Assembly: GCA_002372315.1 (NCBI GenBank)
Contig: DFFU01000008.1
Coordinates: 12,014-76,013, forward strand
Length of the DNA stretch: 64,000 nucleotides
Direction: 5' to 3'
Source: Alphaproteobacteria bacterium UBA3768
GTDB taxonomy: Bacteria; Pseudomonadota; Alphaproteobacteria; CAAHEQ01; UBA3637
Below the pieces are notes generated by a model. The model was given only the letters and a program-made list of their open reading frames with translations. It did no database searches and had not been told where the DNA came from. Shown in pieces: positions 10,283 to 47,503 of this stretch (the stretch's first letter is position 1; each line of letters begins with the position of its first letter). The translations under genes were made by a program, and so were the position numbers.

Positions 10283-11248
10283 TTATATTTTTTGAATTAC
10301 TTTTTGCATCAATTTGGAAAAAGGATAATCTTTAAAATTTTTGGGATGTACCCATATACCATCAAATTTTGGATGTTCTTCGTGTACAATTTGTAATGTC
10401 AGCTTGATATGCGTAAAAATGTGCGTGACAGTGGTGAATTTTCCTGACAATTTTTCCCCCTCAGTCCACGGAAATTCCCAAAGCCCGTGCAATAACCCTT
10501 TTTCAGTGCGTTGGCGAATTAAATATTCTCCTTGATTATTTTGAATTAAATAGACTTGTCCATACATTTCTTTTTTGTTAATTTTCTTGATTTGGGGAAT
10601 TTGTTCTTGAATGCCTTTTTGTTTTGCAATACAACTTTTTGCCCAAGGACATAAAGCACATTTCGGATGAATGGGGGTACAAACAGTTGCTCCTAAATCC
10701 ATAATCGCACTGGCATAATCAGCTCCATGCTGTTGGCTTGTTAGTTCTTGTGCTAAAGGATATATATCGTTGGCTACTATTTCTTTTGTGATACCATAAA
10801 GGCGCGCAATGACCCGCATCACATTTCCATCCACCACAGTTTCGGGCATATTGTAGGCAAAACAACAAATACTACTGGCCGAATACGGTCCAATCCCTGG
10901 TAGTTTTAATAATTCATCTCTTGTATGGGGTAGTTGTCCATTGTATTTTTGCATTAAAACTTTGGCACATTCATGGATTTTACGGGCACGCGTATAGTAT
11001 CCCATTCCTTGCCACGTTAATAACACCTCATTTAAATCAGCCTTTGCCAAAGATTCAATGCTGGGAAATTTTGTCATCCAACGATTAAAATAATCCATGA
11101 CGGTTGCCACAGTTGTTTGCTGCAGCATAATTTCACTGATCCATACAGCATAAGCATTTGAATGCGCTCCACCTTTGACGCGCCAAGGTAAATCACGTCC
11201 GTTTTTTTGATACCATTTTAATAATTGTTCAGTCAGGTTATGGGGCAT
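10283..11248 (-). CDS. mutY: A/G-specific adenine DNA glycosylase MutY
   Basis: HhH-GPD glycosylase with MutY-like N-terminus (LLKWYQKNGRDLPWR, WISEIMLQQTTV) and a C-terminal NUDIX-like domain. Start chosen at MPHNL, overlapping the end of the clpA-like gene; upstream in-frame ATGs exist. Confidence 0.8.
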   Translation of the reverse strand: MPHNLTEQLLKWYQKNGRDLPWRVKGGAHSNAYAVWISEIMLQQTTVATVMDYFNRWMTKFPSIESLAKADLNEVLLTWQGMGYYTRARKIHECAKVLMQKYNGQLPHTRDELLKLPGIGPYSASSICCFAYNMPETVVDGNVMRVIARLYGITKEIVANDIYPLAQELTSQQHGADYASAIMDLGATVCTPIHPKCALCPWAKSCIAKQKGIQEQIPQIKKINKKEMYGQVYLIQNNQGEYLIRQRTEKGLLHGLWEFPWTEGEKLSGKFTTVTHIFTHIKLTLQIVHEEHPKFDGIWVHPKNFKDYPFSKLMQKVIQKI

Positions 11249-13148
11249 TATTTTGTGAGGTGGGTTCTTCATCTTCAATAATTTCCCGATCTTCTTCGGG
11301 AGGACGAATATCTGGAACAGGGTCCTCGGCTTGTTCTTCGGTTGGGGCGACATCCTCTTCTGGTTCCAACTTTGGTTGCTCAGGAATAGCTTCTTCCATT
11401 TTATTGGATGATTTTGCAAAGACACGCAATTTGCGCCCACTGGGGTCTACTCCTAAGAAAACCTCTTGTCCTGGGTGAATACGTTCTTGCATAATCAACA
11501 TAGAAAGGGGTGTTTCTACTTGTTCTTGAATCAAACGCTTTAAAGCACGTACACCGAACTTTGAGGTAAAAACTTCATCCACGAACCAATCTTTTGCCTT
11601 TTCATCCACTGTCACATTATAATTGATAGCCTTGGCACGCTTTAAAAGTTTTCCCAAATGGATTTCCACAATTTTGCGCAAATGTTCGGGTTTTAATTGA
11701 TGGAAGGACACAATATCATCCAAACGGTTTAAAAATTCAGGACGGAAATATTCGGTGAGTTTTGCCACACGTTGATAGCTGGGTAGGCTTGCCCCAACAT
11801 TGGATGTTAAAATAATAATCGTATTTCTAAAATCCACAGTTACACCCTTACTATCCGTTAAACGTCCTTCATCTAACAATTGCAACATCAAATTTAAAAT
11901 ATCCAAATGGGCTTTTTCAATTTCATCAAACAATACCACTTGGAAAGGCTTTAATCGAATGGCCTCGGTCAATAATCCACCATGTTCAAATCCAGGTGAT
12001 CCTGGTGGAGGACCAATCAAACGTGTGACAGATGAACGTTCCATATATTCGGACATATCAATACGCAATAATGCTGTTTCATCATTAAACATAAAGTCCG
12101 CCAAAGATTTTGCCAATTCTGTTTTACCGACACCAGTTGTACCGACAAATAAGAAAGATCCGATAGGACGATTGGGATCTTGCAAACCGGATCTGGCACG
12201 ACGCAAAGCATTGGCCACCACAATCACAGCATTATCTTGCCCGACCACACGTTCACGCAATAAATCTTCCGCCCGAGCCAAGCGTGCTTTATCGTCCGCA
12301 TCCACTTTTTCAACAGGAATCCCCGTCCAATCTGTAATTGTTCTGAAACAAAAATCTTGGGTCAAAGAATTGGCACTTTCATCCACTTCGCCGCGCGCAA
12401 TATCCATCATCAAAAGGCTGGCAGAATCATCCAATAAATCCAAAGCTTTTTCTGGAAAAGCTCTTTGCTTGACATATCGTCCTGTCAATTGACAAGCGAC
12501 CTTTACCGTTTCATCTGGAATTTGAATGTTATAGTGTTCTTCTAAGGCCCCCTTGCGCGCTGTGCAAATTTGAATACTTTCATCCAGAGTTGGTTCTTCC
12601 AATAACAAGGGTTGTAAATGCGCCATGACGGCGTTATCCTTTTCCAAGTGTCCCACATAACTTAATGTGTCTGTTTCAATCAGACAGTTGACTTGATCTG
12701 AGGTTAAACAAAGCTTTAAAAATTTGGCAGGTTCACGATTTTCTGGATTTGTATCCATGGGAACCAAAAAGCTGATATCTTGTAGATATAAAATCTTTTG
12801 TCCTTGACTGGCAACAACAGTTTGTAAAACATTTTTGACTAATTCTGCATACTCTGTATCGTTTTTGGCTGCCAGCATAATTTTGGCGACATCTAATCCA
12901 ACCACCTCACGCGATTGCATGTATTCTGGTGCATTTTCGGATGCCATAAAAGTAATCAAGCCTTTTAAAAGTGCGCTTTTCCCAATGCCACTGGGCCCTA
13001 CCACAACGGGATTATTTTTGGTATTTCTGAGCAATACATGAATTAAGCGTTCTAATTCTTTTTCACGTCCAACCAGTTCAGGAAATTTACCCGCTTTTGC
13101 ATCAAGCGTATAATTGATCAAATATTGCATATAATCTTGTTCTGCCAT
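11238..13148 (-). CDS. clpA: ClpA/ClpB-family AAA+ chaperone, N-domain-less, with degenerate D1 and an acidic C-terminal tail
   Basis: 636 aa with two AAA+ modules. D1 has VGREKELERLIHVL and GPSGIGKSAL. D2 has GSFLFVGTTGVGKTE, IDMSEYMERS and VVLFDEIEKAH. There is no N-terminal Clp_N domain and no ClpB middle domain. The gene starts directly after the upstream stop. GAGGA RBS. Confidence 0.75.
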   Translation of the reverse strand: MAEQDYMQYLINYTLDAKAGKFPELVGREKELERLIHVLLRNTKNNPVVVGPSGIGKSALLKGLITFMASENAPEYMQSREVVGLDVAKIMLAAKNDTEYAELVKNVLQTVVASQGQKILYLQDISFLVPMDTNPENREPAKFLKLCLTSDQVNCLIETDTLSYVGHLEKDNAVMAHLQPLLLEEPTLDESIQICTARKGALEEHYNIQIPDETVKVACQLTGRYVKQRAFPEKALDLLDDSASLLMMDIARGEVDESANSLTQDFCFRTITDWTGIPVEKVDADDKARLARAEDLLRERVVGQDNAVIVVANALRRARSGLQDPNRPIGSFLFVGTTGVGKTELAKSLADFMFNDETALLRIDMSEYMERSSVTRLIGPPPGSPGFEHGGLLTEAIRLKPFQVVLFDEIEKAHLDILNLMLQLLDEGRLTDSKGVTVDFRNTIIILTSNVGASLPSYQRVAKLTEYFRPEFLNRLDDIVSFHQLKPEHLRKIVEIHLGKLLKRAKAINYNVTVDEKAKDWFVDEVFTSKFGVRALKRLIQEQVETPLSMLIMQERIHPGQEVFLGVDPSGRKLRVFAKSSNKMEEAIPEQPKLEPEEDVAPTEEQAEDPVPDIRPPEEDREIIEDEEPTSQNNAP

Positions 13149-13150
13149 GT

Positions 13151-14200
13151 CTAATCCTCAAATCCAAAATGTTCAAAGGGCTTTGCCTCTTCATACCATT
13201 CTTTTGCTTCCAATAAATCATCATTTTCCAATTCAGCATCCACCAAGGTAATAAAGGCATCATAGTTGCTTCCATACATACCAGCTTTCATATAGGCATC
13301 ATTTTCCTGTCCCCAAATGTAATTTTTGGGATCATCAGGGGTATTATATTTATTAAATAATGCTTTTAAAAATGCCTCTTGTCGATCTCGTTTCCTTTGT
13401 AAATTGACCGCCATAAAGTTCAAAGAATTATCCCCTTTATTCAGATAATTTATTCTCCAAAGACGATTATTAGTGGCGGGTGATGTAAAACTAAACTCAA
13501 TAAAATCACGTGTTTTAGGACGTGCTATTTTTAAATTAGATAAATAGGATGTATCATTTGATCGGCTGATTTTTGAAATACATGCTCTTATTTTTTCGGG
13601 TACATGAATACCTCTGCTTTTACAAAAAGTTTCATATTGAGCCGTTCTAAATTTTGAAATGGTATCTTTGGAAGAAATAATTTTATAATTATTTTCTTGT
13701 GCCAGAGCCAGTACTTCTTCTGGTGTCATGCCCAAATAAAAACCTTCTAATTCAAATCCTCGGACATCTGAAAATCTGCTGGATGAGTAAAGATTTTCGT
13801 TGACAGATACATTCCATAAAGGGGACCCTTGAATGTCAATTGCCTGTGTGCGCATATTAACGGGAACCTTGTGTTGGATGGGTTGTTGTTGTTTTGATGC
13901 TAAATCAATTGTTAATGACGGTAATGGTGGTGGTACCATTTCTAATTGAGTAATGGGTTCGGCATTAGATCCTATGTTTGGTTTTTCTCTATTTTTATTG
14001 CCCAATTTGATGGGTTTGGATGCAGATGTATTTGTTGAGGGTGTTGAAACTTTTTTTAAAACAGGTTTAGGCTGTGATACCTCTTCTGTTGCATCATCTT
14101 CATCTCCAAACAAAGGTATATCAACAACTTGTGCGTGAACAAGGTAAGCATGCATGCATGCTATCAAAAAACACAAAGCAAACCGAATGAAAATTAACAT
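13151..14200 (-). CDS. Hypothetical secreted protein (signal peptide, Pro-rich linker)
   Basis: N-terminal signal-like MLIFIRFALCFLIACMHAYLVHA, then a low-complexity, Pro-rich region and a globular C-terminal half. No recognisable family. Confidence 0.5.
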   Translation of the reverse strand: MLIFIRFALCFLIACMHAYLVHAQVVDIPLFGDEDDATEEVSQPKPVLKKVSTPSTNTSASKPIKLGNKNREKPNIGSNAEPITQLEMVPPPLPSLTIDLASKQQQPIQHKVPVNMRTQAIDIQGSPLWNVSVNENLYSSSRFSDVRGFELEGFYLGMTPEEVLALAQENNYKIISSKDTISKFRTAQYETFCKSRGIHVPEKIRACISKISRSNDTSYLSNLKIARPKTRDFIEFSFTSPATNNRLWRINYLNKGDNSLNFMAVNLQRKRDRQEAFLKALFNKYNTPDDPKNYIWGQENDAYMKAGMYGSNYDAFITLVDAELENDDLLEAKEWYEEAKPFEHFGFED

Positions 14201-14286: not shown

Positions 14287-15060
14287 ATGTTAAAAACATA
14301 TACAATGTTTAAAATTGTTTTACTTTCCGCATTATTGATGGGATGCGCCAGTTCTTCAAATGGCCATTTAAATGAAAATCAAGAAAATGATTCATTAGAG
14401 CCGATGAATCGTGTTGTTTTTTCATTCAATGACACATTGGATACTTATCTTTTGCGCCCTGTGGCGAAGGGGTATCGTGCAATTACACCTGAATTTTTTC
14501 GTCAATCTGTGGAAAATTTTTTTGATACATTGAATCAGCCCACTTATCTGATGAATGCCTTGTTACAAGGACAAATGAAAGATGCTGGTTCTATTTTGGG
14601 GCGTACGGGTGTCAATTTGACTTTTGGATTTTTTGGCCTTTTTGATGTGGCGAGTGATGCAGGGATTTCAAACCCGAAAAATGATTTTGGTCAGACTTTG
14701 GCAAAATGGGGATGGCGTGAAGGTGGACCATTTCTAATGCTGCCCTTTTTTGGGCCATCTAATGTGCGTGATACGATTGGTTTTGGTGTGGATGTTGCGG
14801 CAGATCCTGTTTATTGGCGCTTACGTCATAGCAAAGAGTGGGGCTTGATATATGGTGGTTATGCACTTAACAATTTACAAAAACGTGAAAGTATCTTGGA
14901 TTTGACGGATAATTTGAAGAATTCATCCACGGATTATTATGCGGCTATGCGTACTATGTATCGTCAAAATAGACAAAAGAAAATCAATCAAGTTTTACCA
15001 AAGTCAGAGGATGAAGCAAATGCTTATGAATTTGATTTTGAAATAGAGGATGAAGAATAA
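14287..15060 (+). CDS. mlaA: Phospholipid-binding lipoprotein MlaA (VacJ family)
   Basis: Lipobox LLMGC|ASS after a signal peptide. MlaA-like core (RPVAKGYRAITP..., GWREGGPFLMLPFFGPSNVRDT). Confidence 0.75.
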   Translation: MLKTYTMFKIVLLSALLMGCASSSNGHLNENQENDSLEPMNRVVFSFNDTLDTYLLRPVAKGYRAITPEFFRQSVENFFDTLNQPTYLMNALLQGQMKDAGSILGRTGVNLTFGFFGLFDVASDAGISNPKNDFGQTLAKWGWREGGPFLMLPFFGPSNVRDTIGFGVDVAADPVYWRLRHSKEWGLIYGGYALNNLQKRESILDLTDNLKNSSTDYYAAMRTMYRQNRQKKINQVLPKSEDEANAYEFDFEIEDEE

Positions 15061-15073
15061 AAAGGAGGATAAT

Positions 15074-15673
15074 ATGCGTTCTATATTATGTGCTTTAATG
15101 TTGTTTTGCGCAACGCCATCTTTTGCAGCGGCAAATCCGGCTATCGATTTTATGAATGATTTAGCTCAAGAGGTTATTGAACAGGGTATTCAAGGAACAA
15201 CCAGTAATGAACAAAGGGAAGATTTTATTCGCGAAAAGTTTACAAAAGTTTTGGATTTAAAATCTATTGGTCAATTTGTTTTGGGGACTTATTGGAAAAA
15301 AGCGGATGAAGTACAACGAAGGGCCTTTTTGGATGCCTTTACCGAATTGATGACAAAAACATGGTCTGATCGTTTTGGTCTATATACGGGACAACAAGTG
15401 GTGTTTTCGGGAACACGTAACGCACAGCAAAAAAATCAACTGTACGTGGATAGTTCTATTGCTGGAAATCCACCAGTGGAAATCATTTGGCGTATTCGGC
15501 CCAAAGATAAGGGGTATGTCATTATTGATATTGTGATTGAGGATGTTTCAATGGCCATGAGCTATCGCAGTGAATACACCACATTCCTGCAACAACATCA
15601 GGGAAATTTGCAAGTTTTGATTGATGAGTTAAAAAACAAGGCTGAAAACTTTAAGTACTCTGAGAAAAAATAA
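15074..15673 (+). CDS. mlaC: Periplasmic phospholipid-binding protein, MlaC (Ttg2D) family
   Basis: Signal peptide followed by an MlaC-like ~180 aa domain. Directly downstream of mlaA. RBS AAAGGAGGAT before the ATG at 15074. Confidence 0.6.
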   Translation: MRSILCALMLFCATPSFAAANPAIDFMNDLAQEVIEQGIQGTTSNEQREDFIREKFTKVLDLKSIGQFVLGTYWKKADEVQRRAFLDAFTELMTKTWSDRFGLYTGQQVVFSGTRNAQQKNQLYVDSSIAGNPPVEIIWRIRPKDKGYVIIDIVIEDVSMAMSYRSEYTTFLQQHQGNLQVLIDELKNKAENFKYSEKK

Positions 15674-15712
15674 AAAAATCCCCGTCTTATTTTGGCGGGG
15701 ATTAAATTTATT
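15672..15712. terminator. Bidirectional Rho-independent terminator between mlaC and alaS
   Basis: 7-bp stem ATCCCCG/CGGGGAT with an 11-nt loop, flanked by an A-run upstream and a T-rich tract downstream. Confidence 0.6.
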
Positions 15713-17486
15713 TTTCCAAAACGGCTTTAATACGGCGTACCCCAGCAGAAGAGGATTCTTCCTTTTTAATTTTAAAATGCCCTAAATCTCCTGTATTGTT
15801 TGCATGTGGTCCCCCGCATACTTCTTTGGAAAAATCACCCATCGTATAGACTTTTACTAATTCAGCATCATAGCGATCCTTAAACAGGGCAGTAGCGCCA
15901 GATTCAATAGCCTTATCCAACGGCATTTCTTCGCAGGTAATCGGCATTTTTTTATTGATCGCCTCGTTCACCAAATCTTCCACTTGCTTGATTTCTTCGG
16001 GTGTCATCTTGCGCCCAAAGGAAAAGTCAAAACGTAAGCGTTCTGGTGTGATGTTGCTACCCTTTTGGGCGACTTCATCACCCAACACTTTGCGCAAAGC
16101 AGCGTGCAAAAGATGTGTTGCTGAATGCAAATTTGTGGTTTCCACCGAATGATCACTCAATCCGCATTTAAATTTTTGCTCAGAGCCAGCACGGGATAAA
16201 GCCTGATGCGCTTCAAAGCATTTATTAAAGCCCTCTACATCTACACTCAGGCCATTTTCTATGGCAATTTCTTGGGTAAATTCCAATGGAAAACCATAGG
16301 TATCATACAAATGGAAAGCCGTTTGCCCATCAATGGTTTTGTCCTTTAAATTTGATATCACTTTATCCATTTCTTTCAGGCCCGTTGTCAAAGTACGACT
16401 AAACAATTTTTCTTCTTTAGTCAGCTCATCCAAAATAAAGTTTTTATTGCGACCCAATTCAGGATAATCTGACGCATAGCGGTCAATGACGGTTTTGGCT
16501 AAATTGGGCAGTTCATTGGATTCAATGCCCAACTTTTTCATATTGCGAATGGCAATACGAATCAATCGGCGCAAAATATAACCTTGATCAGTATTGGAAG
16601 GCGTCAACCCCCGATCATCGCCCAAGATAAATACGCTGGCGCGCAAATGATCTGCAATTTTACGGAAAGCTTTTAAATCGCTTTCATATTTTCTGCCTGA
16701 TAAATTTTCCAGTTGTTGAATGGTATCAGAAAACATTTCTGTGGAATACACATCCTGAATGCCATTTAAGAAGCATAAAGTACGTTCTAAGCCCATTCCA
16801 GTATCTACATTTTTTTGTGCTAATAATTCGTATTTACCATCAGCTGTTTTATTGTATTGCATAAACACATCATTCCAAATTTCTGTATATTTACCACAAT
16901 GACAACCAGGCTTGCAATCTGGACAACACTTAGGTTGACCATTATCAATAAACATTTCGGTATCTGGTCCGCAAGGGCCAGTTTGACCCGCAGGTCCCCA
17001 CCAATTATCTTCTTTTCCACAGAAGAATATTTGATCATCGCGCAAACCTTGTTCTTTCCAATAACCAGCCGTTTCTTCGTCACGAGGAGCATTTTCATCG
17101 CCTGCAAAACACGTAACTGCTAACTGCTCTTTTTTAAAGCCCAGTTTTTGGGTTAAAAACTCAAAACTCCAAGCCACCATTTCTTTTTTAAAATAATCGC
17201 CCAAAGACCAGTTGCCCATCATCTGAAAAAAGGTCAAATGACTGGTATCTCCAACATCTGAAATATCATTGGTACGAACACATTTTTGAATATCAGTCAG
17301 GCGTGTTCCCGCGGGGTGTTTTTGTCCCATCAGATAAGGAATTAATGGTTGCATTCCTGCTGTGGTAAACAACACTGTTGGGTCATTTTCGGGTAGTACC
17401 GAGGCCGATGGAATTTCGGTGTGTCCCTTTGATTTAAAAAAGTCTAACCAAAGATTTCTTAATTCGTGATAGGTAAATGGCATTTT
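15708..17486 (-). CDS. alaS: Alanine--tRNA ligase, short form lacking the C-terminal Ala domain
   Basis: N-terminal class II core (FLDFFKSKGHTEIPSASVLPENDPTVLFTTAGM, KCVRTNDI). Editing-domain metal motifs HSATHLLH and CGGPH near the C-terminus. Start ATG at 17486 has AAAGGAG. Protein is ~592 aa against ~870 aa for canonical AlaRS. Confidence 0.85.
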   Translation of the reverse strand, partial: KMPFTYHELRNLWLDFFKSKGHTEIPSASVLPENDPTVLFTTAGMQPLIPYLMGQKHPAGTRLTDIQKCVRTNDISDVGDTSHLTFFQMMGNWSLGDYFKKEMVAWSFEFLTQKLGFKKEQLAVTCFAGDENAPRDEETAGYWKEQGLRDDQIFFCGKEDNWWGPAGQTGPCGPDTEMFIDNGQPKCCPDCKPGCHCGKYTEIWNDVFMQYNKTADGKYELLAQKNVDTGMGLERTLCFLNGIQDVYSTEMFSDTIQQLENLSGRKYESDLKAFRKIADHLRASVFILGDDRGLTPSNTDQGYILRRLIRIAIRNMKKLGIESNELPNLAKTVIDRYASDYPELGRNKNFILDELTKEEKLFSRTLTTGLKEMDKVISNLKDKTIDGQTAFHLYDTYGFPLEFTQEIAIENGLSVDVEGFNKCFEAHQALSRAGSEQKFKCGLSDHSVETTNLHSATHLLHAALRKVLGDEVAQKGSNITPERLRFDFSFGRKMTPEEIKQVEDLVNEAINKKMPITCEEMPLDKAIESGATALFKDRYDAELVKVYTMGDFSKEVCGGPHANNTGDLGHFKIKKEESSSAGVRRIKAVLEK

Positions 17487-17545
17487 TTTCTCCTTTGATA
17501 ATGGGGCGAAGTATATCAAAAATTTTCCCAAAAGTCAAGAATTTG

Positions 17546-21662: not shown

Positions 21663-21806
21663 AATGGCTTTACATGAAAGAAAATCTCATCATTGGGGGT
21701 GGATTTTAGCTTTTATCATAGGGGGAATAATATTTTTGTTCGCATGGTGTGATTTTATGCCTCAACCACAAATGATAGAAAAGAAAATTATCCATACAGT
21801 ACAATA
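21663..21806 (+). CDS. Small hypothetical membrane protein (47 aa), translationally coupled to xerD
   Basis: Not in the ORF track. Strong RBS AGGAGGT precedes ATG 21663. Product MALHERKSHHWGWILAFIIGGIIFLFAWCDF... has one TM helix. Its stop overlaps the xerD ATG. Confidence 0.3.
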
Positions 21807-22730
21807 ATGCGTTCAGATCAAATAGATGCTTTTTTGCAAATGATGCAGGCAGAACGGGGTGCTTCAGGTAACACTCTTTTGGCCTATGGTCGTGATATGA
21901 ATTTGTTGGATGAGTATTTTGATGCGCGTCAAAAAGATTTACTGAATGTGTCTGAAAAAGATTTGGCAGATTTTATCACTTTTTTGGCAAATAGTGGAGA
22001 CTCAGCCCGTACTCAGGCGCGTCGTTTATCCTGTATTCATGAATTTTATCGATTTGCTTATTCTGAAGATTGGATAAAGGTAAATCCTGCAAATTTTTTG
22101 CAAGGCCCGAAATTGCCCAAAGCACTGCCTAAATATTTGGCAGAACAAGAAGTTCTTCAATTGATACAAATTGCACAAGAAACCAATAAAAGATTATATG
22201 TTTTGTTGGAAGTTTTGTATGCTTCTGGTATGCGTGTCAGTGAACTGGTAGGGCTACCTGTGGGGGCTTTTAACAGGGAAGAAAAACATATTCAAATTGT
22301 GGGTAAGGGGGGACGTGAACGTATCGTTCCTTTAAATAATCACGCAATGGCTGCATTAGAGCAATGGATGATTTTACGTGAAAATGATCTTCCAGGTAAT
22401 CGCAAAACAAAATGGCTTTTTCCATCTTTTAAAAGTCATTTGGGGCATTTGACACGGGGGGCTTTTTTTAAAGAACTTAAAAAATTGGCTGTCCAAGTTG
22501 GAATTGATCCAGATAAGGTTTCTCCCCATGTTTTTCGGCATTCTTTTGCTTCGCACTTGGTGGCACATAACGCGGATTTACGTTCTGTTCAGCAAATGTT
22601 GGGACACGCACAAATTGCCACTACACAAATATATACGCATGTTTTACCAGACAGATTAAAAAAGATAGTTGAAAAATCTCATCCTTTATCGTATAATGGC
22701 CGTAAGGAAAAAAATGAAAATAACGGATAA
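21807..22730 (+). CDS. xerD: Tyrosine recombinase XerD (XerC/D family)
   Basis: SAM-like N-domain, and C-terminal catalytic residues in context (R..HxxR...Y: HVFRHSFASHL, TQIYTH). Adjacent to aroK. Confidence 0.8.
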   Translation: MRSDQIDAFLQMMQAERGASGNTLLAYGRDMNLLDEYFDARQKDLLNVSEKDLADFITFLANSGDSARTQARRLSCIHEFYRFAYSEDWIKVNPANFLQGPKLPKALPKYLAEQEVLQLIQIAQETNKRLYVLLEVLYASGMRVSELVGLPVGAFNREEKHIQIVGKGGRERIVPLNNHAMAALEQWMILRENDLPGNRKTKWLFPSFKSHLGHLTRGAFFKELKKLAVQVGIDPDKVSPHVFRHSFASHLVAHNADLRSVQQMLGHAQIATTQIYTHVLPDRLKKIVEKSHPLSYNGRKEKNENNG

Positions 22731-23808
22731 ATACATCTTAAGACAGCTGATTGTTGGCTTTTTATTGGTATTAACCTGCTTAACGATGCTGGTATGGTTG
22801 ACGCAATCTTTGCGTATGATTGATATGATTGTCAGTAAAGGTGTTGGTGTATGGATTTTTATTGAAATGACACTGTTGGTGTTGCCGAAATTTATGCAAA
22901 TTCTAATGCCGTTAGCCTTATTTGCAGTTGTTATGTTCACATTTATTCGCATGCAATCAGATAAAGAATTGATGGTGTTAAAAGCGGTGGGAATGAGTCC
23001 CAGTCAACTCATGCGACCTGTATTAAAAATGGCAACCTTTTTGATCCTTATTGGTTATATTCTTTCTTTTTTTGTCACTCCATGGGCCACGACAATGGTA
23101 CGGGAAATGCGTTGGAAAATCCAAAACAATTTATCTCATGTTTTATTACAAGAAGGGCAATTTAATACTTTTAAAAAAGGGATGATGGTTTATATTCGTG
23201 AACGCTTACCAGATGGTGCAATAAAAGGTGTTTTGGCTTATGAGATTAAAAATGGTAAAAAATCTGTTTTGATTGCGGATGAAGGCACTTTATACCAGAC
23301 ACCTGATGGTTTGGAAATTTTATTTGGTCAGGGGGTACGCCAGGAGTATGATCCTAAAAATCAAGGATTCTCTGTTTTAAAATTTGATAAGTACACGATT
23401 ACTTTAAATGACAGTCACCATTCGGGCAGTTCTCGTGTCCCGAGTGTTCAAGAATTACCATTTATGTATTTATTGACCGTTCCAAAAGATAAAGTGATTG
23501 ATCACGCCACTTGGCGTAAATATAAGGTGGAGGCATTTAAACGTATGACGCAGCCTTTATATAATCTGGTTTTTGCGCTGCTTGCATTAGTGGGTGTTTT
23601 GACGGGGCACTATAATCGCCGAGGTCAATCTGGACGCATTAACTTTGTTGTTGGGGCTGCTTTATTTATTCAAGTTTTTGCGTTGATGTTTGAAAATTTA
23701 TCTGGTAAGAATTTGTGGGCCATTATCTTGATGTGTTTGAATATTATTGTTCCTGTGTGGGTTATTTATCGTGTTTTTCAAAAAGAAGAAGGTCCACGTT
23801 TGAAAAAA
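22714..23808 (+). CDS. lptG: LPS export permease, LptF/LptG (YjgP/YjgQ) family; reads in-frame into lptD with no stop codon
   Basis: 6-TM permease with a central periplasmic domain, ~365 aa to the lptD ATG. The ATG at 22714 follows AAGGAAAAAA. No stop codon occurs before the lptD start. Confidence 0.7.
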
Positions 23809-25962
23809 ATGCCATTGAAATGCTTGATTTTATTGTTATGTTCATTGATGTCGTGCCCAGTTTGGGCTGTATCAAAAATAGATACCTCCGCTTTTAATAA
23901 AGAGCAACCTGTTGATTTTGAAGCGGACCATGTGTCTTATAATCAGCACAATCAAATTATGACTGCAAGTGGTAATGTTGTTTTAAAACAAAATGGTATT
24001 TTGTTTACCACTGATAAAATAATCTATAATCAAGAAAAGGATTTAATTCATATCCCAGGTCAGGCCAAAATGGTTTTACCTGATGGTAATTCATCTATTG
24101 TTCATGATATTCAAATGAAAGCACATGGGGATGAAGTGGCAACAGGCAAAGGAATAATGGACATGGCGGATGGAACACATTTATGGGCCAATCAGGTTAT
24201 ACGTCAAAATAAAGGGACAGAAAATATTTTAAAGGATGCCTACTATACGCCGTGTGATATGTGCGAAGGGAGTACGCCTTTATGGCAATTACATGCGACA
24301 TCTGTGGAACAAGATGATGAATCGCACATGATGCGTTTTTGGAATACTTTTTTGGAAATTAAGGATATTCCCGTTTTCTATTTTCCCTATTTTCAAACCC
24401 CTGATTATACGGTGAAACGTAAAACTGGTTTTTTAACACCGGGATTTGGCAGTGGTTCAGAACTAAAAACCCATATAGAGCTTCCTTTTTTTGTGAATAT
24501 TGCCCCCAATCAAAATTTAACCATAACACCTATGATCTCTTTTACACGTAATCCCCTTGGTATGTTGGATTATCAAGGATTATTCACCAAAGGAAAAGTC
24601 AATTTAAAGGCAAGTTTTACAGTTGATAAGGAACATCAAAATCAAGGACATATAGAGTCTGATTTTGAATATGATATAGATTCTTCTTGGCGCGTAACAG
24701 GGTCTTATAATCGTTCTTTGACTGACACATATTTTCGCCGTTACAATGTCTTGGATGTGGATCAGACACAATCTTATTTGACTTCTCATTTAGGGACTGA
24801 ATATTATGGGAACAGAGTACAAGGTGAGGCTACATTCTATAATTTCCAAAGTTTACAGGATGGGGTTTCATCCAAAACAATCCCTGTTATTTTACCTGTT
24901 TTTAATGCACACTATACAACATTACCCTTTACCGAAGATGGTGGTGTTATGTTTTCGGATATAAATGGGGCTTTTATCAATACGCGCAGACATTTTAAAT
25001 CAAATCGTATCTCTTTGACACAAGGTATTCAATTACCTTATCGGACTTCTTGGGGGCTTTCTACTGAATTATCTGGAACAGTGCGTATGGATGGATACAG
25101 TGTGGATACGGGGGAAGATGGAATTGGTTTTGGTCGAAAAAATGATTCTTATTTTACAGGGCGCATATTTCCTCAGGCCGTTTTAAAAATTGGATACCCT
25201 TTGATTCAAAAAGGAATGAAATATACCCAAGTTTTAGAGCCAATTGTCATGTTGGTTGTGGGACCCAATGGTTCAAATAGTGATAAAATTCCTAATGTGG
25301 ATAGTACTGTTTTTGATTTTGATGATGCTAATTTGTTTTCAGCCAATCGTTACGTAGGGTATGATAGGGTAGAATCTGGATCGCGAATCAATTATGGTGT
25401 TCAGTGGACATTGTATCAAACGGGAAAAAATCGATCCATTCAGGCTCTGTTAGGGCAAAGTGTACGATTGAGAAATGAAACAGAATTGGATGATGCCATG
25501 GGTTACGAACATCATTTTTCCAGTTATGTCGGTCGGTTACGCTTAAATTATGAGTATTTATCATTGGCTTATCGCTTTCGTTTTTCAGAACATAACCTAG
25601 AACCTCAAAAAAATGATATATCTTTGCAACTAGGTGGTGCTCCGTTAAGTGTTGGTATTGATTATTTATTTCAAGATTCATTTCGCATGAAAAATATATA
25701 TTCAACTGCCAAAAAAGAAATTTCAATCTTTGCTAAATCACGCTTAACCAAAAATTGGTCGGCTGAAGCGCGCCACAGATATAATTTACTTAAACCCAAT
25801 CGGGGGGCTTTAGAAACTTATGGTGTTTTGCGCTATGATAATGAATGTACAGCTGTTGAATTAGTTGGAAAGAAATCTTATACTTATGATCGTAACTATC
25901 GTGGTAGTACATCAATAAGTGTCAGGTTCTATTTAAAGACAATAGGAGGTTTTGGACAATGA
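23809..25962 (+). CDS. lptD: LPS-assembly outer-membrane protein LptD
   Basis: Signal peptide MPLKCLILLLCSLMSCPVWA, then an N-terminal OstA-like domain and a large C-terminal beta-barrel. surA follows, as in the conserved lptD-surA arrangement. Confidence 0.8.
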   Translation: MPLKCLILLLCSLMSCPVWAVSKIDTSAFNKEQPVDFEADHVSYNQHNQIMTASGNVVLKQNGILFTTDKIIYNQEKDLIHIPGQAKMVLPDGNSSIVHDIQMKAHGDEVATGKGIMDMADGTHLWANQVIRQNKGTENILKDAYYTPCDMCEGSTPLWQLHATSVEQDDESHMMRFWNTFLEIKDIPVFYFPYFQTPDYTVKRKTGFLTPGFGSGSELKTHIELPFFVNIAPNQNLTITPMISFTRNPLGMLDYQGLFTKGKVNLKASFTVDKEHQNQGHIESDFEYDIDSSWRVTGSYNRSLTDTYFRRYNVLDVDQTQSYLTSHLGTEYYGNRVQGEATFYNFQSLQDGVSSKTIPVILPVFNAHYTTLPFTEDGGVMFSDINGAFINTRRHFKSNRISLTQGIQLPYRTSWGLSTELSGTVRMDGYSVDTGEDGIGFGRKNDSYFTGRIFPQAVLKIGYPLIQKGMKYTQVLEPIVMLVVGPNGSNSDKIPNVDSTVFDFDDANLFSANRYVGYDRVESGSRINYGVQWTLYQTGKNRSIQALLGQSVRLRNETELDDAMGYEHHFSSYVGRLRLNYEYLSLAYRFRFSEHNLEPQKNDISLQLGGAPLSVGIDYLFQDSFRMKNIYSTAKKEISIFAKSRLTKNWSAEARHRYNLLKPNRGALETYGVLRYDNECTAVELVGKKSYTYDRNYRGSTSISVRFYLKTIGGFGQ

Positions 25963-27122
25963 AACATTTGATTTTTTTATGGATGATGGGAACCGCTTTT
26001 GTGGCTCATGCAGGTAACCTAAAAGCGATCGTTAATGATGTGCCCATTTTTGAAACAGAGGTTTCTGCCCGTATGGCGTTATTACAGGCTCAGCAGCCTG
26101 ATCTCTATCAAGAAATGTCCCAGCAAAAATTGGAAAAAGTGGCTTTGGATAATTTGGTGGATGAATACTTGAAAATTCAAAAAAGTCAAGCATTAAATGT
26201 CAAAGTTTCTGAGGCAGAAATTGATCAAGCAGTTGCACATTTGGAACGTCAGAATGGTTTTTCAGAAGGTGGACTGGCGCGTATGTTAAACGAACAAAAT
26301 GTTCCCATGAAAACATTGCGGCAACAAGTTTATGGGGATTTGGTTTGGTTGTCCTATGTCAAAGCAAATGCGGGGCATATTACCATTCCTGATTCAGCTG
26401 TTGATCAAAGAATGCAAAAAATCCGTAAAGAAATGGCAAATCCTACTTTTACAGTTGCCGAAATAAAGGTGCCAACTTTGGAACAGGCACAAGATATATG
26501 GAATCAACTGCAACAAGATGCGGCTTCTTTTTCTGATTTGGCTCAAAAGTACTCCCAATCAAAATCAGCAAAATCAGGGGGCTATGTTGGTGTTATTCAA
26601 TCGGATCATTATGGTTCTGATGTAACCCCTGTTTTAAAGGAAATGCCGGCGGGGCAATTATCCCGTCCGATTATGCTAAAAGATGGATATTTAATTTTAT
26701 ATATGATGGATAAAAAAGCGGCAATTACTTCTGATTCAATTGATTTGTGGGAGTTAGCTCAAGGTGGCGTTGATGACCAAACAGATACAACGGCTATCTT
26801 AAAAGCAAAAAACTGTGATGCATTTGTGGCTCAAGTGGAAAAAGATGGTGTGACAAATTCTGTTCAACGGGGATGGACGGATCCATATCAATTACCGACA
26901 GAACTTAAAGAAATGTTGGAAGATAAGGCTGTGGGTGAAATTTTGGGCCCAGTGCGTGTTCCTCAGGGGAAATTGTTCTTTATGAAGTGTCAAGTCAAAA
27001 AACAACGTGTCCTACCCACAAAAGAACAGGTAAGAGAACAATTAGAAGTAGAGCAAATGGAGCATATGGCCAAACGTTTGTTGAATGCGCAAAAGCGTGA
27101 AGCGGTAATAGAATATAAATAA
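25959..27122 (+). CDS. surA: Periplasmic chaperone / peptidyl-prolyl isomerase SurA
   Basis: Signal peptide, SurA N-domain and a parvulin PPIase domain (GGYVGVIQSDHYG...LKDGYLILYMMDKK). ATGA overlap with the lptD stop. Confidence 0.8.
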   Translation: MKHLIFLWMMGTAFVAHAGNLKAIVNDVPIFETEVSARMALLQAQQPDLYQEMSQQKLEKVALDNLVDEYLKIQKSQALNVKVSEAEIDQAVAHLERQNGFSEGGLARMLNEQNVPMKTLRQQVYGDLVWLSYVKANAGHITIPDSAVDQRMQKIRKEMANPTFTVAEIKVPTLEQAQDIWNQLQQDAASFSDLAQKYSQSKSAKSGGYVGVIQSDHYGSDVTPVLKEMPAGQLSRPIMLKDGYLILYMMDKKAAITSDSIDLWELAQGGVDDQTDTTAILKAKNCDAFVAQVEKDGVTNSVQRGWTDPYQLPTELKEMLEDKAVGEILGPVRVPQGKLFFMKCQVKKQRVLPTKEQVREQLEVEQMEHMAKRLLNAQKREAVIEYK

Positions 27123-34994: not shown

Positions 34995-36752
34995 ATGGTA
35001 AAATTAACAATTGATTCAAAAGTGGTTGAAGTTCCAGAAGGAACAACAATTTTAGATGCGGCCAAGTCTGCGCAAATCAAGATTCCGACACTGTGTCATC
35101 ATCCTGATTTGCCACCCACAGCCGCTTGCGGTATTTGTATCGTGAAGGTGGGCAATCGCATGGTACGTTCCTGTTGTACACCAGTGGCTGAAGGTATGGA
35201 AGTCATTACGCGTGATCCAGATATTATTGAAGCGCGTCGGACAGTGTTAAAACTGACTCTCAGTAAACATCCCAATGAATGCTTGACTTGTTTGAAAAAC
35301 GAAACATGTGAATTGCGTAAACTCTCGGCTGATTTTGGGATTCGTGATACAGAATTTGCAAACATTACACCCAGCAAAGAAGAAATGCCATTGGATGATT
35401 CCACCAAAAGTATCGTTTTGGATCCACGCAAGTGTATCTTGTGTGGGCGTTGTGTGGAAGTTTGTCAAAATGTTCAAAATGTGTGGGCATTATCTATGCT
35501 CAAACGTGGTATCAATACACACATTTCACCGGCGGCTGATAACAAGTTAGGGGATAGTCCTTGTATCAAGTGTGGTCAATGTACGGCTCACTGTCCAACA
35601 GGGGCACTCACCGAACGTGATGATACACAATATGTATGGAGTTTGTTACAAGATCCTGAAAAATATTGTGTGGTTCAAATTGCACCGGCTGTGCGTGTGG
35701 CTATCGGTGAAGCCTTTGGCTATAAGCCCGGTGAAATCACCACAGGTAAAATCTATGCAGCTTTGCGTCGCTTGGGCTTTAATGCTGTATTTGATACCAA
35801 CTTTGGTGCTGACGTGACCATTATGGAAGAAGGCAGCGAATTTATTGAACGTTTTGTGAATGGTAAAGGTGCTTTGCCACTCATTACTTCTTGCTGTCCG
35901 GCTTGGGTGGATTATATGGAAAAGTATTTCAGCGATATGATTCCACATTTTTCCAGCTGTAAGTCCCCGCATGAAATCGTGGGTGCATTGGCAAAGACAT
36001 ACTATGCCGATAAGGTCAATGTCCCAACCGAAAAAATGCGTGTGATTTCTATCATGCCCTGTACGGCGAAAAAGTTTGAAATCTTGCGCAGTGAAGAAAT
36101 GTTCTCCTCTGGTTTCCAAGATGTAGATGTTTCGCTTACGACTCGTGAATTAGCCCGTATGATAAAGCAGGCTGGTATTGATTTTGTCAATTTGCCTGAG
36201 GAAGAGGCTGATTCACCATTGGGATCTTATACGGGTGCTGGTACAGTATTCGGATTTTCTGGTGGCGTGATGGAGGCTGCCTTGCGTACTGTCCACGCTG
36301 TTGTGACAGGTAAGGAAATGCCTGAAGATGCTTTGGAAGTCAAACCCATTTTGGGCTTAGATAAAGGTATCAAAGAAATGACCATGGATCTGAATGGCAA
36401 GGAAGTCCGTATTGCTGTTGCTCATGGCATTGGGCACGTTCAAGCGCTTCTTGAAAAAGTGCGTGAGGCTGAACAAAAAGGCGAAGAGCCCCCCTATCAC
36501 TTTATTGAAGTGATGGCTTGCCAAGGCGGCTGTGTAGGTGGTGGTGGCCAACCTTTGGGGGTCACGGACGAAATCCGTAAAGCCCGTATGGAAGGTTTGA
36601 TGAAAGATGACCGCGGATCCAAGCAACGCTGTTCGCATTTGAATCCGGATGTGAAAAAACTTTATGATGAATTTTTGGGTAAGCCCTTATCTGAACGTTC
36701 TCATCACCTTTTGCACACCAGTTATCAAAAGCGTGAGCTTTACAAAAAATAA
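34995..36752 (+). CDS. hydA: [FeFe]-hydrogenase catalytic subunit HydA
   Basis: N-terminal 2Fe-2S ferredoxin domain. Two CxxCxxCxxxCP 4Fe-4S motifs (CILCGRCVEVC, CIKCGQCTAHCP). All three H-cluster signatures: TSCCPAW (L1), MPCTAKK (L2) and EVMACQGGCVGGGGQP (L3). Confidence 0.9.
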   Translation: MVKLTIDSKVVEVPEGTTILDAAKSAQIKIPTLCHHPDLPPTAACGICIVKVGNRMVRSCCTPVAEGMEVITRDPDIIEARRTVLKLTLSKHPNECLTCLKNETCELRKLSADFGIRDTEFANITPSKEEMPLDDSTKSIVLDPRKCILCGRCVEVCQNVQNVWALSMLKRGINTHISPAADNKLGDSPCIKCGQCTAHCPTGALTERDDTQYVWSLLQDPEKYCVVQIAPAVRVAIGEAFGYKPGEITTGKIYAALRRLGFNAVFDTNFGADVTIMEEGSEFIERFVNGKGALPLITSCCPAWVDYMEKYFSDMIPHFSSCKSPHEIVGALAKTYYADKVNVPTEKMRVISIMPCTAKKFEILRSEEMFSSGFQDVDVSLTTRELARMIKQAGIDFVNLPEEEADSPLGSYTGAGTVFGFSGGVMEAALRTVHAVVTGKEMPEDALEVKPILGLDKGIKEMTMDLNGKEVRIAVAHGIGHVQALLEKVREAEQKGEEPPYHFIEVMACQGGCVGGGGQPLGVTDEIRKARMEGLMKDDRGSKQRCSHLNPDVKKLYDEFLGKPLSERSHHLLHTSYQKRELYKK

Positions 36753-36756
36753 AAGA

Positions 36757-36788
36757 ACCCCCGACCAAACGGTCGGGGATTTTTTTTG
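36757..36788. terminator. Bidirectional Rho-independent terminator after hydA / RNHCP gene
   Basis: GC-rich stem CCCCGACC-AAAC-GGTCGGGG followed by a T8 run. Confidence 0.7.
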
Positions 36789-36795
36789 ATTGATT

Positions 36796-37143
36796 TTACC
36801 TAACGTGAAGTTTTTGTTTCATATAAAAATCCATCGCTTGATGCGAAAGAGCCAATAAAGCATCAAAATTGTCATTGGGACTTGTTTTGTTACGACGGAT
36901 ATGTCCACATTTGGTGCAACGATGGACAATATAGTCATGTCCATTTTTATGTTCCAACTTTTCGGCTAACATGATTCCATGACAATTGCAAGCTCTGTCA
37001 CCAGGATTCACATCCACGTGCAGTGATGACAAACATTCAGGGCAGTGGTTAGTATAACCATTACCTTTGACCTTTGTGCCACAAACGACACAGGTAAAAT
37101 CCTCTACTTTTCTGGTAAATTGAGCCGTTTTCATGTCCGACAT
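36796..37143 (-). CDS. RNHCP domain-containing zinc-ribbon protein
   Basis: Motif YTNHCPECLSSLHVD plus additional CxxC pairs. The start is probably MSDMK (37143) rather than the upstream in-frame ATG. Confidence 0.6.
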   Translation of the reverse strand: MSDMKTAQFTRKVEDFTCVVCGTKVKGNGYTNHCPECLSSLHVDVNPGDRACNCHGIMLAEKLEHKNGHDYIVHRCTKCGHIRRNKTSPNDNFDALLALSHQAMDFYMKQKLHVR

Positions 37144-37178
37144 TATAACACAAATCAAAAAAAAATGCAAGAAAACAC

Positions 37179-37207
37179 TTGACCTCATGAAAATTTTGCG
37201 CTATAAT
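37179..37207 (+). promoter_or_regulatory. Sigma70-type promoter of tRNA-Leu
   Basis: TTGACC, 17 nt, TATAAT, about 21 nt upstream of the mature tRNA 5' end. Confidence 0.5.
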
Positions 37208-37228
37208 TACTCCGCTTTCAGTTCACGT

Positions 37229-37315
37229 GCGGATATGGCGGAACTGGTAGACGCAACGGACTTAAAATCCGTTGGGGGCAACCCCGTGCCGGTTCGATTC
37301 CGGCTTTCCGCACCA
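37229..37315 (+). tRNA. tRNA-Leu (anticodon UAA), type II with long variable arm
   Basis: Manual fold: acceptor GCGGATA/TTTCCGC (one T:T mismatch at 6:67), D-arm GCGG..AACTGGTAG..ACGC, anticodon stem ACGGA/TCCGT with loop CTTAAAA, long variable arm, T-arm GCCGG-TTCGATT-CCGGC, and an encoded CCA. Confidence 0.85.
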
Positions 37316-37412
37316 ATTAAAAAAGCTTGAAATCTAAGCATTTTAAATCAAGGTCAAAGTTTATCTTTGGCCTTTTTTGTTTTTGAAAAACACTTGCGTA
37401 TCAATAGTTTAT
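37291..37412. repeat. Left direct repeat (tRNA-Leu 3' end + downstream terminator), attL-like
   Basis: About 120 nt that is about 90% identical to 43634-43756, as read from the sequence. Includes the hairpin AGGTCAAAG..CTTTGGCCT plus a T-run. Confidence 0.75.
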
Positions 37413-37447
37413 ATTGGTTTTGTTTAATTTTTATAAAAGGGCAAAGT

Positions 37448-37883
37448 ATGATGAAAAACCGTGATGCAAAATGTGATGCGCACCAAAATTTGCGACCAAT
37501 CCATTTATGGTTGCGAGAAAACATTTTTTATTGTAGAATGGAACTACCACGAATGGATGGAAAAAGACGGTATAAGCGAATTTCATTGCATACTGATAAT
37601 TACTATAAAGCGAGGGAAATGATGAAGCAAATTAACCAAAACCAACCTAATGCTTTGATGGATAAATTACATTTCCTATACAATCAGTTGATTTTTGATA
37701 CAGAAATTATCGTTGATGGTCTTGCCAGGTTCCTGTGGAATGGCGCGTCAGATCAAAACACTATCAAAGCGTAATAATCCTGAAACTCTTCGCGATTTGC
37801 TTGAAACATATTTAAAGATTGAAGCGGAAAGAAATGAACAGCTGCGTTCTGAATTTAGATTTTTGTTAGTTAATTCGGCTTAA
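37448..37883 (+). pseudogene. Remnant of a P4-type tyrosine integrase (N-terminal arm-binding domain only, broken frame)
   Basis: The segment LRENIFYCRMELPRMDGKRRYKRISLHTDNYYKAREM resembles the DUF4102/arm domain of P4-like integrases (pattern W.FRY...GK.....SLG.YP..SL..AR). The ORF stops after about 110 aa and continues in another frame (37695-37883) with no catalytic domain. It sits immediately 3' of the tRNA. Confidence 0.35.
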
Positions 37884-37975
37884 AATCAACCAAATTTTGA
37901 ACAGAAGTATATTGTAATTCAAAAAAATCAAACATAGGATTGTTTTTTTATAACTATTTGATATAATATTTTTGT

Positions 37976-46630: not shown

Positions 46631-46720
46631 AATCTTTTCTCCTTTCATATTCAATCAAGTTCACAGCGCTTGATGATATCCAACATATGGGATTATGAAA
46701 GCAAAAAATCAAGTGCTAAA

Positions 46721-47458: not shown

Positions 47459-47503
47459 TTCTCCTCTTAAGTGAAAATAGCAAAATTTGTCCCAAAAGTC
47501 AAA

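Follow-up and report, generated by a model that had tools for sequence, protein, structure and literature searches.

The stretch of DNA that we analysed, 64 kb in length and hereafter called the window, carries a gene in which an LptF-type permease reads in frame into LptD, placed between a xerD-type recombinase gene and surA. The locus contains the following features, all on the forward strand:

21807..22730 (+): xerD-type recombinase gene (Pfam Phage_integrase and SAM_1), its end overlapping the start of lptF by 17 nt
22714..25962 (+): fused lptF::lptD gene, 1082 codons plus stop, an ORF without interruption
22714..23784 (+): LptF moiety, residues 1-357, with six TM helices and a periplasmic beta-jellyroll between TM3 and TM4
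23785..23868 (+): internal signal peptide, residues 358-385, with n-region EEGPRLKKMPLK, h-region CLILLLCSLM and c-region SCPVWA
23803..23809 (+): A7 run, coding K364, K365 and the first base of M366
23868/23869 (+): predicted signal-peptidase I site between A385 and V386 (-3/-1 rule and h-region statistics)
23869..25959 (+): predicted mature LptD, residues 386-1082, 697 aa (Pfam LptD_N and LptD)
25959..27122 (+): surA, periplasmic chaperone gene (Pfam SurA_N and Rotamase)

Counted from a TTG codon, the reading frame extends over 22669..25962 (+) and gives the ORF of 1097 aa listed for the window and cited in the preliminary description of this DNA; as an ORF that length is correct, but as the length of the real gene it does not hold, since the ATG at 22714 gives 1082 aa and agrees with the N-termini of the homologues (MKIxDKYIL...). 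The gene call in an independent assembly (L007) is identical to the version starting at ATG 22714. On the 1097-aa ORF, Pfam places LptF_LptG at residues 21-361 and LptD_N plus LptD at 418-1030, and the continuous frame, with LptF, LptD_N and LptD matches in Pfam and NCBIfam, bears out the original observation of a permease running directly into LptD. At the junction, the protein reads ...GPRLKK-MPLK... and the DNA cgt ttg aaa aaa atg cca ttg aaa. At the other end of the gene, the ATG of surA overlaps the lptFD stop codon (ATGA), with a strong SD (TAGGAGGTT) ahead of it. In all related loci with a gene table that we examined, surA is immediately 3' of lptD or lptFD, and the position of xerD is kept in both the fused L017 and the unfused L013.

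The permease half is LptF, not LptG: it scores 234.6 bits against the LptF model TIGR04407 (cutoff 230) and 97.6 bits against the LptG model TIGR04408 (cutoff 240), and of the name lptG-lptD given earlier, the fusion stands and the lptG does not. Distant fused members score 222-231 against TIGR04407, just under or at the cutoff, and always far lower against LptG. PF03739 matches the permease with 218 bits over model positions 1-341 of 353, and PDB LptF chains (e.g., E. coli 6MHU chain F) match query residues 5-270 in phmmer. A hydropathy scan places the TM helices at approximately 12-30, 46-78, 99-121, 278-296, 309-327 and 334-352, and the AF2 model of this half consists of helices plus strands at 150-231, with pLDDT mostly 75-92. 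In the cytoplasmic loop between TM2 and TM3, D83, K84 and E85 show no variation across the fused proteins that were aligned (59/59). Going by the phmmer offset (query 5 = chain 4), E85 is probably the counterpart of E84 in the coupling helix of E. coli LptF, a strictly conserved residue (PMC5082905). A phmmer search with the LptF and LptD_N parts against the ORFs of the window and 10 related loci found no LptG, LptA or LptC paralogue beyond the fused gene. For LptG, this negative result covers all 64 kb of the window and the flanks of L001-L005 and L007-L010, and the same query recovers both lptF and lptG in the control locus L006. LptF works as a heterodimer with LptG, its obligatory partner, together with two LptB.

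The LptD half comprises a beta-jellyroll at approximately 401-512 and a C-terminal beta-barrel at approximately 524-1074. It is matched by PF03968 (LptD_N; 24.1, cutoff 20.4), by PF04453 (161 bits) and, over query residues 389-934, by PDB LptD chains (e.g., 4Q35/4RHB chain A) with E-values of 1e-21 to 1e-26; in the AF2 model, it is all-beta over 401-1074, with most of the strand pattern at pLDDT 70-93. Against the gammaproteobacterial NCBIfam equivalog models of LptD, the score stays below the cutoff (151 vs 683), as expected for a distant lineage. The mature N-terminus ...PVDFEAD is conserved across the homologues, and C514, C517 and C1045 are invariant among the aligned fused proteins. Judging by the invariant coupling-helix region, the LptD cysteines and the lack of stop codons, both halves look functional. 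They are clear homologues of the canonical LptF (of LptB2FG) and LptD (of LptDE) of E. coli, with the same Pfam/NCBIfam domain set and the same AF2 fold elements, and the genes lie beside surA as they do in other Proteobacteria. The canonical proteins are separate, however, whereas here they share one reading frame, and LptD lacks an N-terminal signal peptide of its own, the signal peptide being internal to the 1082-aa precursor and following six TM helices.

The combination of LptF and LptD (PF03739 and PF04453 in one protein) is present in at least 120 clusters of 45-100% identity, and the 120 fused clusters listed are 1065-1096 aa long, save one entry of 990 aa. Uninterrupted fused ORFs are also found in five GTDB species-representative MAGs, their junction DNA unlike that of the window, and indels at the junction of homologues are always multiples of three. 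All fused members come from uncultured MAGs or metagenome contigs. Among representatives at 50% identity, fused forms occur at 72, 43, 38, 32 and 28% identity, along with fragments, and the five that we checked all have an AxA-type junction. In an NJ tree of the LptD part, P0228 forms a long branch; the fusion in P0130 likely has an independent origin, which is not proven by a tree built without support values. Judged from these sequence comparisons, the fusion is genuine and lineage-wide in uncultured Alphaproteobacteria, not a sequencing error at A7, and it is ancient and under selection; the recent frameshift proposed earlier was wrong about the timing.

The sequence at the junction fits the pattern of a Sec signal peptide, with a basic n-region, an uncharged h-region and small residues at -3 and -1. 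In an unsupervised MAFFT alignment of 120 homologues, position -1 is A, S or G in 120/120 (A114/S5/G1) and position -3 is A, V, S or T in 120/120 (A75/V21/S15/T9), position -2 is hypervariable, and Pro is never found at +1. The ten h-region columns from -16 to -7 contain no charged residues, and K or R is present in 59-81 of the 120 homologues at columns -17 and -19 of the n-region. The h- and c-regions together have a median length of 16, which by sequence is short for a stable TM anchor. Six TM helices precede the K/R-rich loop and thus place the n-region on the cytoplasmic side. In the AF2 model, pLDDT falls below 50 over the junction (359-398) while both halves are modelled confidently. 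The cleavage site was called solely by the -3/-1 rule and h-region statistics.

We consider it likely that the conserved fusion acts as a polyprotein, with signal peptidase I separating a 7-TM LptF from a normal mature LptD after A385; among the possibilities raised in the preliminary description, a genuine fusion of an inner-membrane permease and an outer-membrane protein that needs signal-peptidase cleavage is the reading favoured by the evidence. The ribosome would make LptF first, the six TM helices leaving its C-terminus in the cytoplasm, and the former LptD signal peptide would then insert N-in/C-out as a seventh hydrophobic segment and thread the LptD moiety via SecYEG to the periplasm. 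Signal peptidase I would cut past the conserved A-x-A (A385/V386), and the freed, normal mature LptD would pass to the outer membrane with the help of SurA, the product of the next gene, and BAM; the signal peptide would remain on LptF as a short seventh segment, so that LptF, once processed in this manner, gains a C-terminal membrane segment that canonical LptF does not have. Such a scheme would be expected to make the synthesis of LptF and LptD obligatorily 1:1, to export a beta-barrel of the outer membrane during translation, in the wake of a polytopic membrane protein, and to release LptD beside the new LptB2FG complex. We infer the cut at A385/V386 from sequence, and the export route and any selective advantage of the fusion are similarly our inferences.

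The fusion could also be real but uncleaved, the hydrophobic segment acting as a seventh TM anchor and LptD staying covalently tied to LptF, and the continuous ORF and the hydrophobicity of the segment would agree with this. We find it improbable, however, as the small residues at -1 and -3, retained throughout the alignment amid an unconserved segment, are hard to explain without signal peptidase, and approximately 10 residues of h-region do not suffice for a stable anchor. Geometry is a further obstacle: from the site to the first jellyroll strand there are approximately 13 residues, some 45 Å when extended, whereas the jellyroll of LptD, in the Lpt bridge, has its N-terminal edge far from the inner membrane and needs that edge free for LptA to dock. 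Moreover, we know of no precedent for a tethered barrel being assembled by BAM. Equally improbable is that the precursor is uncleaved or not always cleaved and a single polypeptide spans from the LPS extractor to the translocon, or that the retained seventh segment serves LptB2FG, for example in place of the LptC TM helix; if this were true, the LPS bridge of the lineage would be built unlike that of all studied bacteria, and the gene would provide the first natural instance in which a polytopic inner-membrane protein carries an outer-membrane beta-barrel as its tail through co-translational export.

A second alternative, that LptD is also or mainly made from an internal start and the fusion is a tolerated read-through of little functional meaning, seems to us distinctly improbable. 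The window gene does have an in-frame ATG (M366, 23809-23811) at the start of the signal peptide, preceded at approximately 16 nt by a weak SD-like GAAGAAGG, and from sequence, initiation of LptD at GTG or TTG is conceivable. A Met near the junction is found in just 34 of the 120 homologues, however, and is absent from the region in the other 86, and most of them would therefore be unable to start LptD at an ATG; L001 has no ATG, GTG or TTG in frame within the signal-peptide segment or shortly before it, the sole such codon found being a GTG inside TM6. The SD at the internal ATG of the window (-3.8 kcal/mol) is far weaker than those of surA (-11.4) and the unfused lptD of L013 (-7.9), and the weak SD signals in the fused genes are suggestive, though not decisive, evidence against internal initiation. 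Finally, the frame has been kept through many indels over this divergence, which points to the read-through product as the one under selection. The same conservation counts against programmed transcriptional or translational slippage on the A-run, suggested earlier and envisaged as producing a regulated mix of fused and separate products. The A7 is situated exactly at the junction, and a -1 shift would lead to a stop three codons on, but such a shift leaves no LptD from that message and the run is shorter than those that support efficient slippage. A7 and T7 runs are also ordinary in a genome of 38% GC, runs of at least seven A or T numbering 81 in the 64-kb window and four within lptF::lptD. 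The A7 is not conserved at the homologous position in the relatives L001-L005, L001 having neither an A-run nor an ATG at the corresponding place; with the frame conserved and the run not, slippage is unsupported and, in our view, highly improbable, and the A7 is an ordinary run that merely codes Lys-Lys in the basic n-region.

There is next to no chance that the true sequence is A6 and that a homopolymer error conceals separate, overlapping lptF and lptD genes: in that case TGA would close the permease frame and LptD would begin in its own frame at the ATG, and overlapping stop/start pairs do exist in unfused relatives, but an error at this run is refuted by no fewer than 120 independent clusters, and five other species besides, that share the in-frame fusion while their junction DNA differs and lacks an A7 there. 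A comparison with orthologous junctions, as proposed earlier, shows L001-L005 fused in frame without an A7, the rule of three among junction indels speaks against it as well, and a contig built by a different assembler (run SRR873606) is 100% identical across 15.4 kb, A7 included. The hypothetical overlap in the A6 version, ATGCCATTGA, would also be 10 nt, not 8 nt as first described.

The overlapping stop and start pictured earlier is, on the other hand, correct for the unfused relatives and thus for the ancestral state. The closest unfused relatives share the synteny xerD-lptF-lptD-surA, and lptF and lptD overlap by 4 nt (ATGA) in L013, with a good SD before lptD, and by 8 nt (ATGACTAA) in L015. 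More broadly, the unfused pairs (L013/L014, L015/L016 and L011) resemble the fused locus in gene order, with aroK, a small ORF, xerD, lptF, lptD, surA, (rsmA) and folD, and in the type of LptF, and differ from it in retaining the stop codon, with an overlap of 4 nt or 8 nt or a gap of 40 nt. In these relatives, the unfused LptD begins with an ordinary N-terminal signal peptide, located at the homologous position. The shared synteny and overlapping genes explain the origin of the fusion by loss of a stop codon: in the ancestor, the lptF stop was located a few bases past the lptD start codon and the pair was thus translationally coupled, and once the stop was lost, the two frames were joined.

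The LPS bridge has LptF at one end and LptD at the other, and each is an antibiotic target; to our knowledge, they are separate proteins in every studied system, and a full-text literature search found no description of a natural LptF-LptD fusion. A parallel may be found in FbcH of Bradyrhizobium japonicum, a cytochrome b-c1 precursor in which, reportedly (Thony-Meyer et al. 1991), a single polypeptide comprises a polytopic membrane protein and one facing the periplasm and is split at an internal signal sequence. The common elements are a polytopic inner-membrane protein, an internal signal peptide and an exported partner of the same machine, with stoichiometric synthesis. The proteins are unrelated, however, and the second product of FbcH stays in the inner membrane, whereas LptD, an outer-membrane beta-barrel, still has the periplasm to cross and depends on BAM for folding. 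The glycoprotein precursors of flaviviruses and bunyaviruses are polyproteins processed by signal peptidase and containing internal signal sequences. As proposed here, internal signal peptides orient and separate consecutive membrane and exported proteins, although the enzyme is the eukaryotic ER signal peptidase and the systems are evolutionarily unrelated.

The prevailing view is that barrels of the outer membrane are exported post-translationally. A lineage-wide fusion would mean that such a barrel can routinely be made as the C-terminal part of a polytopic inner-membrane protein, that both bridge ends can be produced at one membrane site in a fixed 1:1 ratio, and that an extra membrane segment is tolerated by LptF. 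Being lineage-wide and with at least one probably independent recurrence, it may serve as a natural test construct for how export mode, stoichiometry and the place of synthesis relate to LptD folding and the assembly of the Lpt bridge. The fused proteins are currently annotated as either 'LptF' or 'LptD', and surveys counting one name per protein therefore score the other component as missing.

The permease and LptD sequences lie, as the preliminary description stated, in one uninterrupted frame, which numbers 1097 codons counted from TTG. ATG 22714 is the biologically sensible start, giving a product of 1082 aa; it agrees with the N-termini of all homologues, and an independent assembly has the gene annotated from the same start.

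22669-25962, forward strand: the uninterrupted frame
22714-25962, forward strand: lptFD, the fused gene
23803-23809, within lptFD: the A7 run at the junction

Pfam places LptF_LptG in the N-terminal third of the fused protein and LptD_N and LptD in the remainder. The permease, first taken for LptG, is an LptF according to NCBIfam, scoring 234.6 bits with TIGR04407 (LptF; cutoff 230) and 97.6 bits with the LptG model (cutoff 240). Each half is an ordinary member of its own family, the difference being the single-precursor architecture, and public annotations name the fused proteins either LptF or LptD. Both moieties look functional, judging from a 59-sequence alignment in which the coupling-helix region, including E85, and three LptD cysteines are invariant. 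E85 is probably the counterpart of E84 of Escherichia coli LptF, a residue described as strictly conserved (PMC5082905).

At the DNA level the junction is cgt ttg aaa aaa atg cca ttg aaa, and at the protein level ...GPRLKK MPLKCLILLLCSLMSCPVWA VSK.... In the LptF half, which has the six canonical transmembrane helices, the segments preceding it are as follows.

Residues ~12-30, 46-78 and 99-121: transmembrane helices 1 to 3
Between helices 3 and 4: beta-jellyroll
Residues ~278-296, 309-327 and 334-352: transmembrane helices 4 to 6

Helix 6 is followed by a 15-residue loop, compatible with a cytoplasmic side given its five K/R, and then by a hydrophobic stretch at 368-386. When residues were counted per column in an unsupervised MAFFT alignment of 120 homologues, the column of A385 (position -1) held 114 A, 5 S and 1 G, that of V383 (-3) 75 A, 21 V, 15 S and 9 T, and the -2 column between them was hypervariable. 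Columns -16 to -7, ten in all, hold not a single K, R, D or E and are preceded by K/R-rich columns; S/A/T/G/P are enriched from -6 to -4, none of the 120 sequences has Pro at +1, and the median length of the uncharged h+c stretch is 16 residues. Equivalent motifs are found in five distant fused representatives (ARA|N, SNA|S, AGA|K, AKA|A and LFA|Q). By its sequence, the junction follows the n-h-c layout and the -3/-1 rule typical of Sec signal peptides of the signal peptidase I type, with an h+c stretch that is too short, and an end too polar, for a stable membrane anchor. A Met is present near the junction in only 34 of the 120 sequences, and the Shine–Dalgarno signal of the window's internal ATG is weak, at -3.8 kcal/mol; surA reaches -11.4 and the lptD of L013, an unfused locus, -7.9. 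AlphaFold2, run on the 59-sequence alignment, models the LptF and LptD halves confidently (mean pLDDT 78.6), residues 359-398 falling below 50; the pTM of 0.52 indicates no fixed relation between the halves.

A polyprotein is the reading best supported by these data, in line with one option considered at the outset, a genuine fusion requiring signal-peptidase cleavage. LptF would be inserted cotranslationally, after which the internal signal peptide would insert N-in/C-out and guide LptD through SecYEG. A cut by signal peptidase I at A385|V386 (window 23868|23869) would then leave a mature LptD of 697 aa that would start ~13 residues ahead of the conserved PVDFEAD strand, as in ordinary LptD. 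SurA would pass the mature LptD to BAM; its gene comes next after lptFD, overlapping it by ATGA and preceded by a strong Shine–Dalgarno sequence. The signal peptide would be retained by LptF as a seventh segment at its C-terminus. Possible benefits are a 1:1 dosage and local release of LptD. The main rival explanation is an uncleaved tether, with LptD still attached to LptF. Against it stand the conserved small residues at -1 and -3, the short h-region and the ~13-residue spacer, which is too short to span the periplasm. For the cleaved polyprotein, the closest functional precedent known to us is FbcH of Bradyrhizobium, a cytochrome b-c1 precursor that is split at an internal signal sequence; its second product, however, remains in the inner membrane. 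No account of a natural LptF-LptD fusion emerged from full-text searches of the literature.

In a homologue search that took in 5.8 billion proteins, at least 120 clusters matched the window protein at 45-100% identity, each with LptF/G and LptD domains and, with a single exception of 990 aa, a length of 1065-1096 aa. Five more MAG species, with unbroken fused ORFs at 60-80% identity, came from a search in which each species was represented by a single genome. The comparison of orthologous junctions that had been proposed as a check shows different DNA in these species: at L001, the sequence ...ATTTTAAAGCATTTTATC... contains neither an A-run nor an ATG. Junction length among the homologues always varies by whole codons. 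A contig built from run SRR873606 by a different assembler is identical to the window across 15,405 bp, A7 included. The fused clusters, the differing junction DNA and this second contig rule out a sequencing error at A7. Slippage on the A-run is refuted by L001 and by the ordinariness of the A7 itself, the window having 81 runs of at least seven A or T, 4 of them within the fused gene. In the hypothetical A6 version, stop and start would overlap by 10 nt and not by the 8 nt first proposed.

HMMER, run exhaustively against 1.84 billion representatives clustered at 50% identity, recovered more full-length fusions, at 43, 38, 32 and 28% identity, along with fragments; ~140 unfused ordinary LptDs of 690-930 aa come next, at 28-34% identity. 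The permease is of the LptF type in every fused form checked, and the LptF-LptD fusion is ancient and conserved and probably works as a polyprotein. A query that picked up both lptF and lptG in a control locus detected no LptG in the window or at the related loci examined. Six of the unfused LptDs (P0147, P0160, P0162, P0177, P0178 and P0195; 850-930 aa) carry low-complexity, Pro/Ala/Ser-rich N-terminal extensions of 165-230 aa between signal peptide and jellyroll, another route, unlike the fusion, to a longer periplasmic end of LptD.

The closest unfused relatives share the window's gene neighbourhood, and the extended gene order of L017, a fused locus at 38% identity, equals that of the unfused L013/L014.

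L013/L014: aroK, small ORF, 549-aa gene, xerD, lptF (366 aa), lptD (702 aa), surA, rsmA ... folD

The stop/start overlap postulated as the ancestral arrangement exists in these relatives: it is ATGA in L013, with a good AAGGAG 10 nt upstream and an LptD that opens with a signal peptide of the ordinary type, MKFFGFILTAVLFLTRTAAA|LDKNGPVDFSAD, and 8 nt long in L015/L016 (ATGACTAA); in L011, a 40-nt gap separates the genes. A one-base indel within such an overlap would join the frames and make the LptD signal peptide internal. In a rough neighbour-joining tree of the LptD moiety, which carries no support values, P0001 to P0126, the main fused group, form a single clade, and the fused P0130 sits among P0175 and P0166, unfused proteins with their own N-terminal signal peptides. 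This nesting suggests that the fusion arose more than once, which we consider likely though not proven.

Several other genes of the window were noted.

19-3426, forward strand: very large S8 subtilase-family protein (1135 aa), at the left edge
14287-15673, forward strand: adjoining mlaA and mlaC homologues, ~7 kb upstream of lptFD
15708-17531, reverse strand: alanyl-tRNA synthetase homologue (591-607 aa) with catalytic tRNA-synt_2c and tRNA_SAD domains
21664-21807, forward strand: ORF of 46-47 aa with one hydrophobic segment
33164-36752, forward strand: NuoF-like flavoprotein gene beside a FeFe-hydrogenase large-subunit gene
37229-37312: tRNA gene
37976-40213: sulfatase-family protein
40204-41784, reverse strand: GT41 glycosyltransferase

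The 46-47 aa ORF, with no Pfam match on record, lies directly upstream of xerD, its final base doubling as the A of the xerD start codon; in L013 (3470-3610) and L015 (13218-13361, reverse strand), the two unfused lineages compared, an equally sized ORF of low sequence similarity adjoins xerD. The mlaA and mlaC homologues are part of a second outer-membrane lipid-homeostasis system. Bacterial alanyl-tRNA synthetases have ~870 aa, making the window's homologue much shorter than usual. The NuoF-like/FeFe-hydrogenase pair resembles a bifurcating-hydrogenase module, here in an alphaproteobacterium, and the window's genes, this module included, suggest an anaerobe; a similar module occupies 1-3148 (reverse strand) of L015/L016, where the unfused lptF-lptD pair lies ~2 kb away. 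The tRNA gene marks the left edge of a stretch (36000-48000) with a GC content of 0.34-0.35 against 0.38-0.43 elsewhere, which encodes the sulfatase-family protein and the glycosyltransferase and may be a horizontally acquired island. In L008, a fused relative at 45% identity, type IV secretion genes (two VirB8 and one CagX/VirB9-like; 10987-13341) lie beyond six genes with no Pfam match on record, ~7 kb downstream of lptFD-surA-folD.
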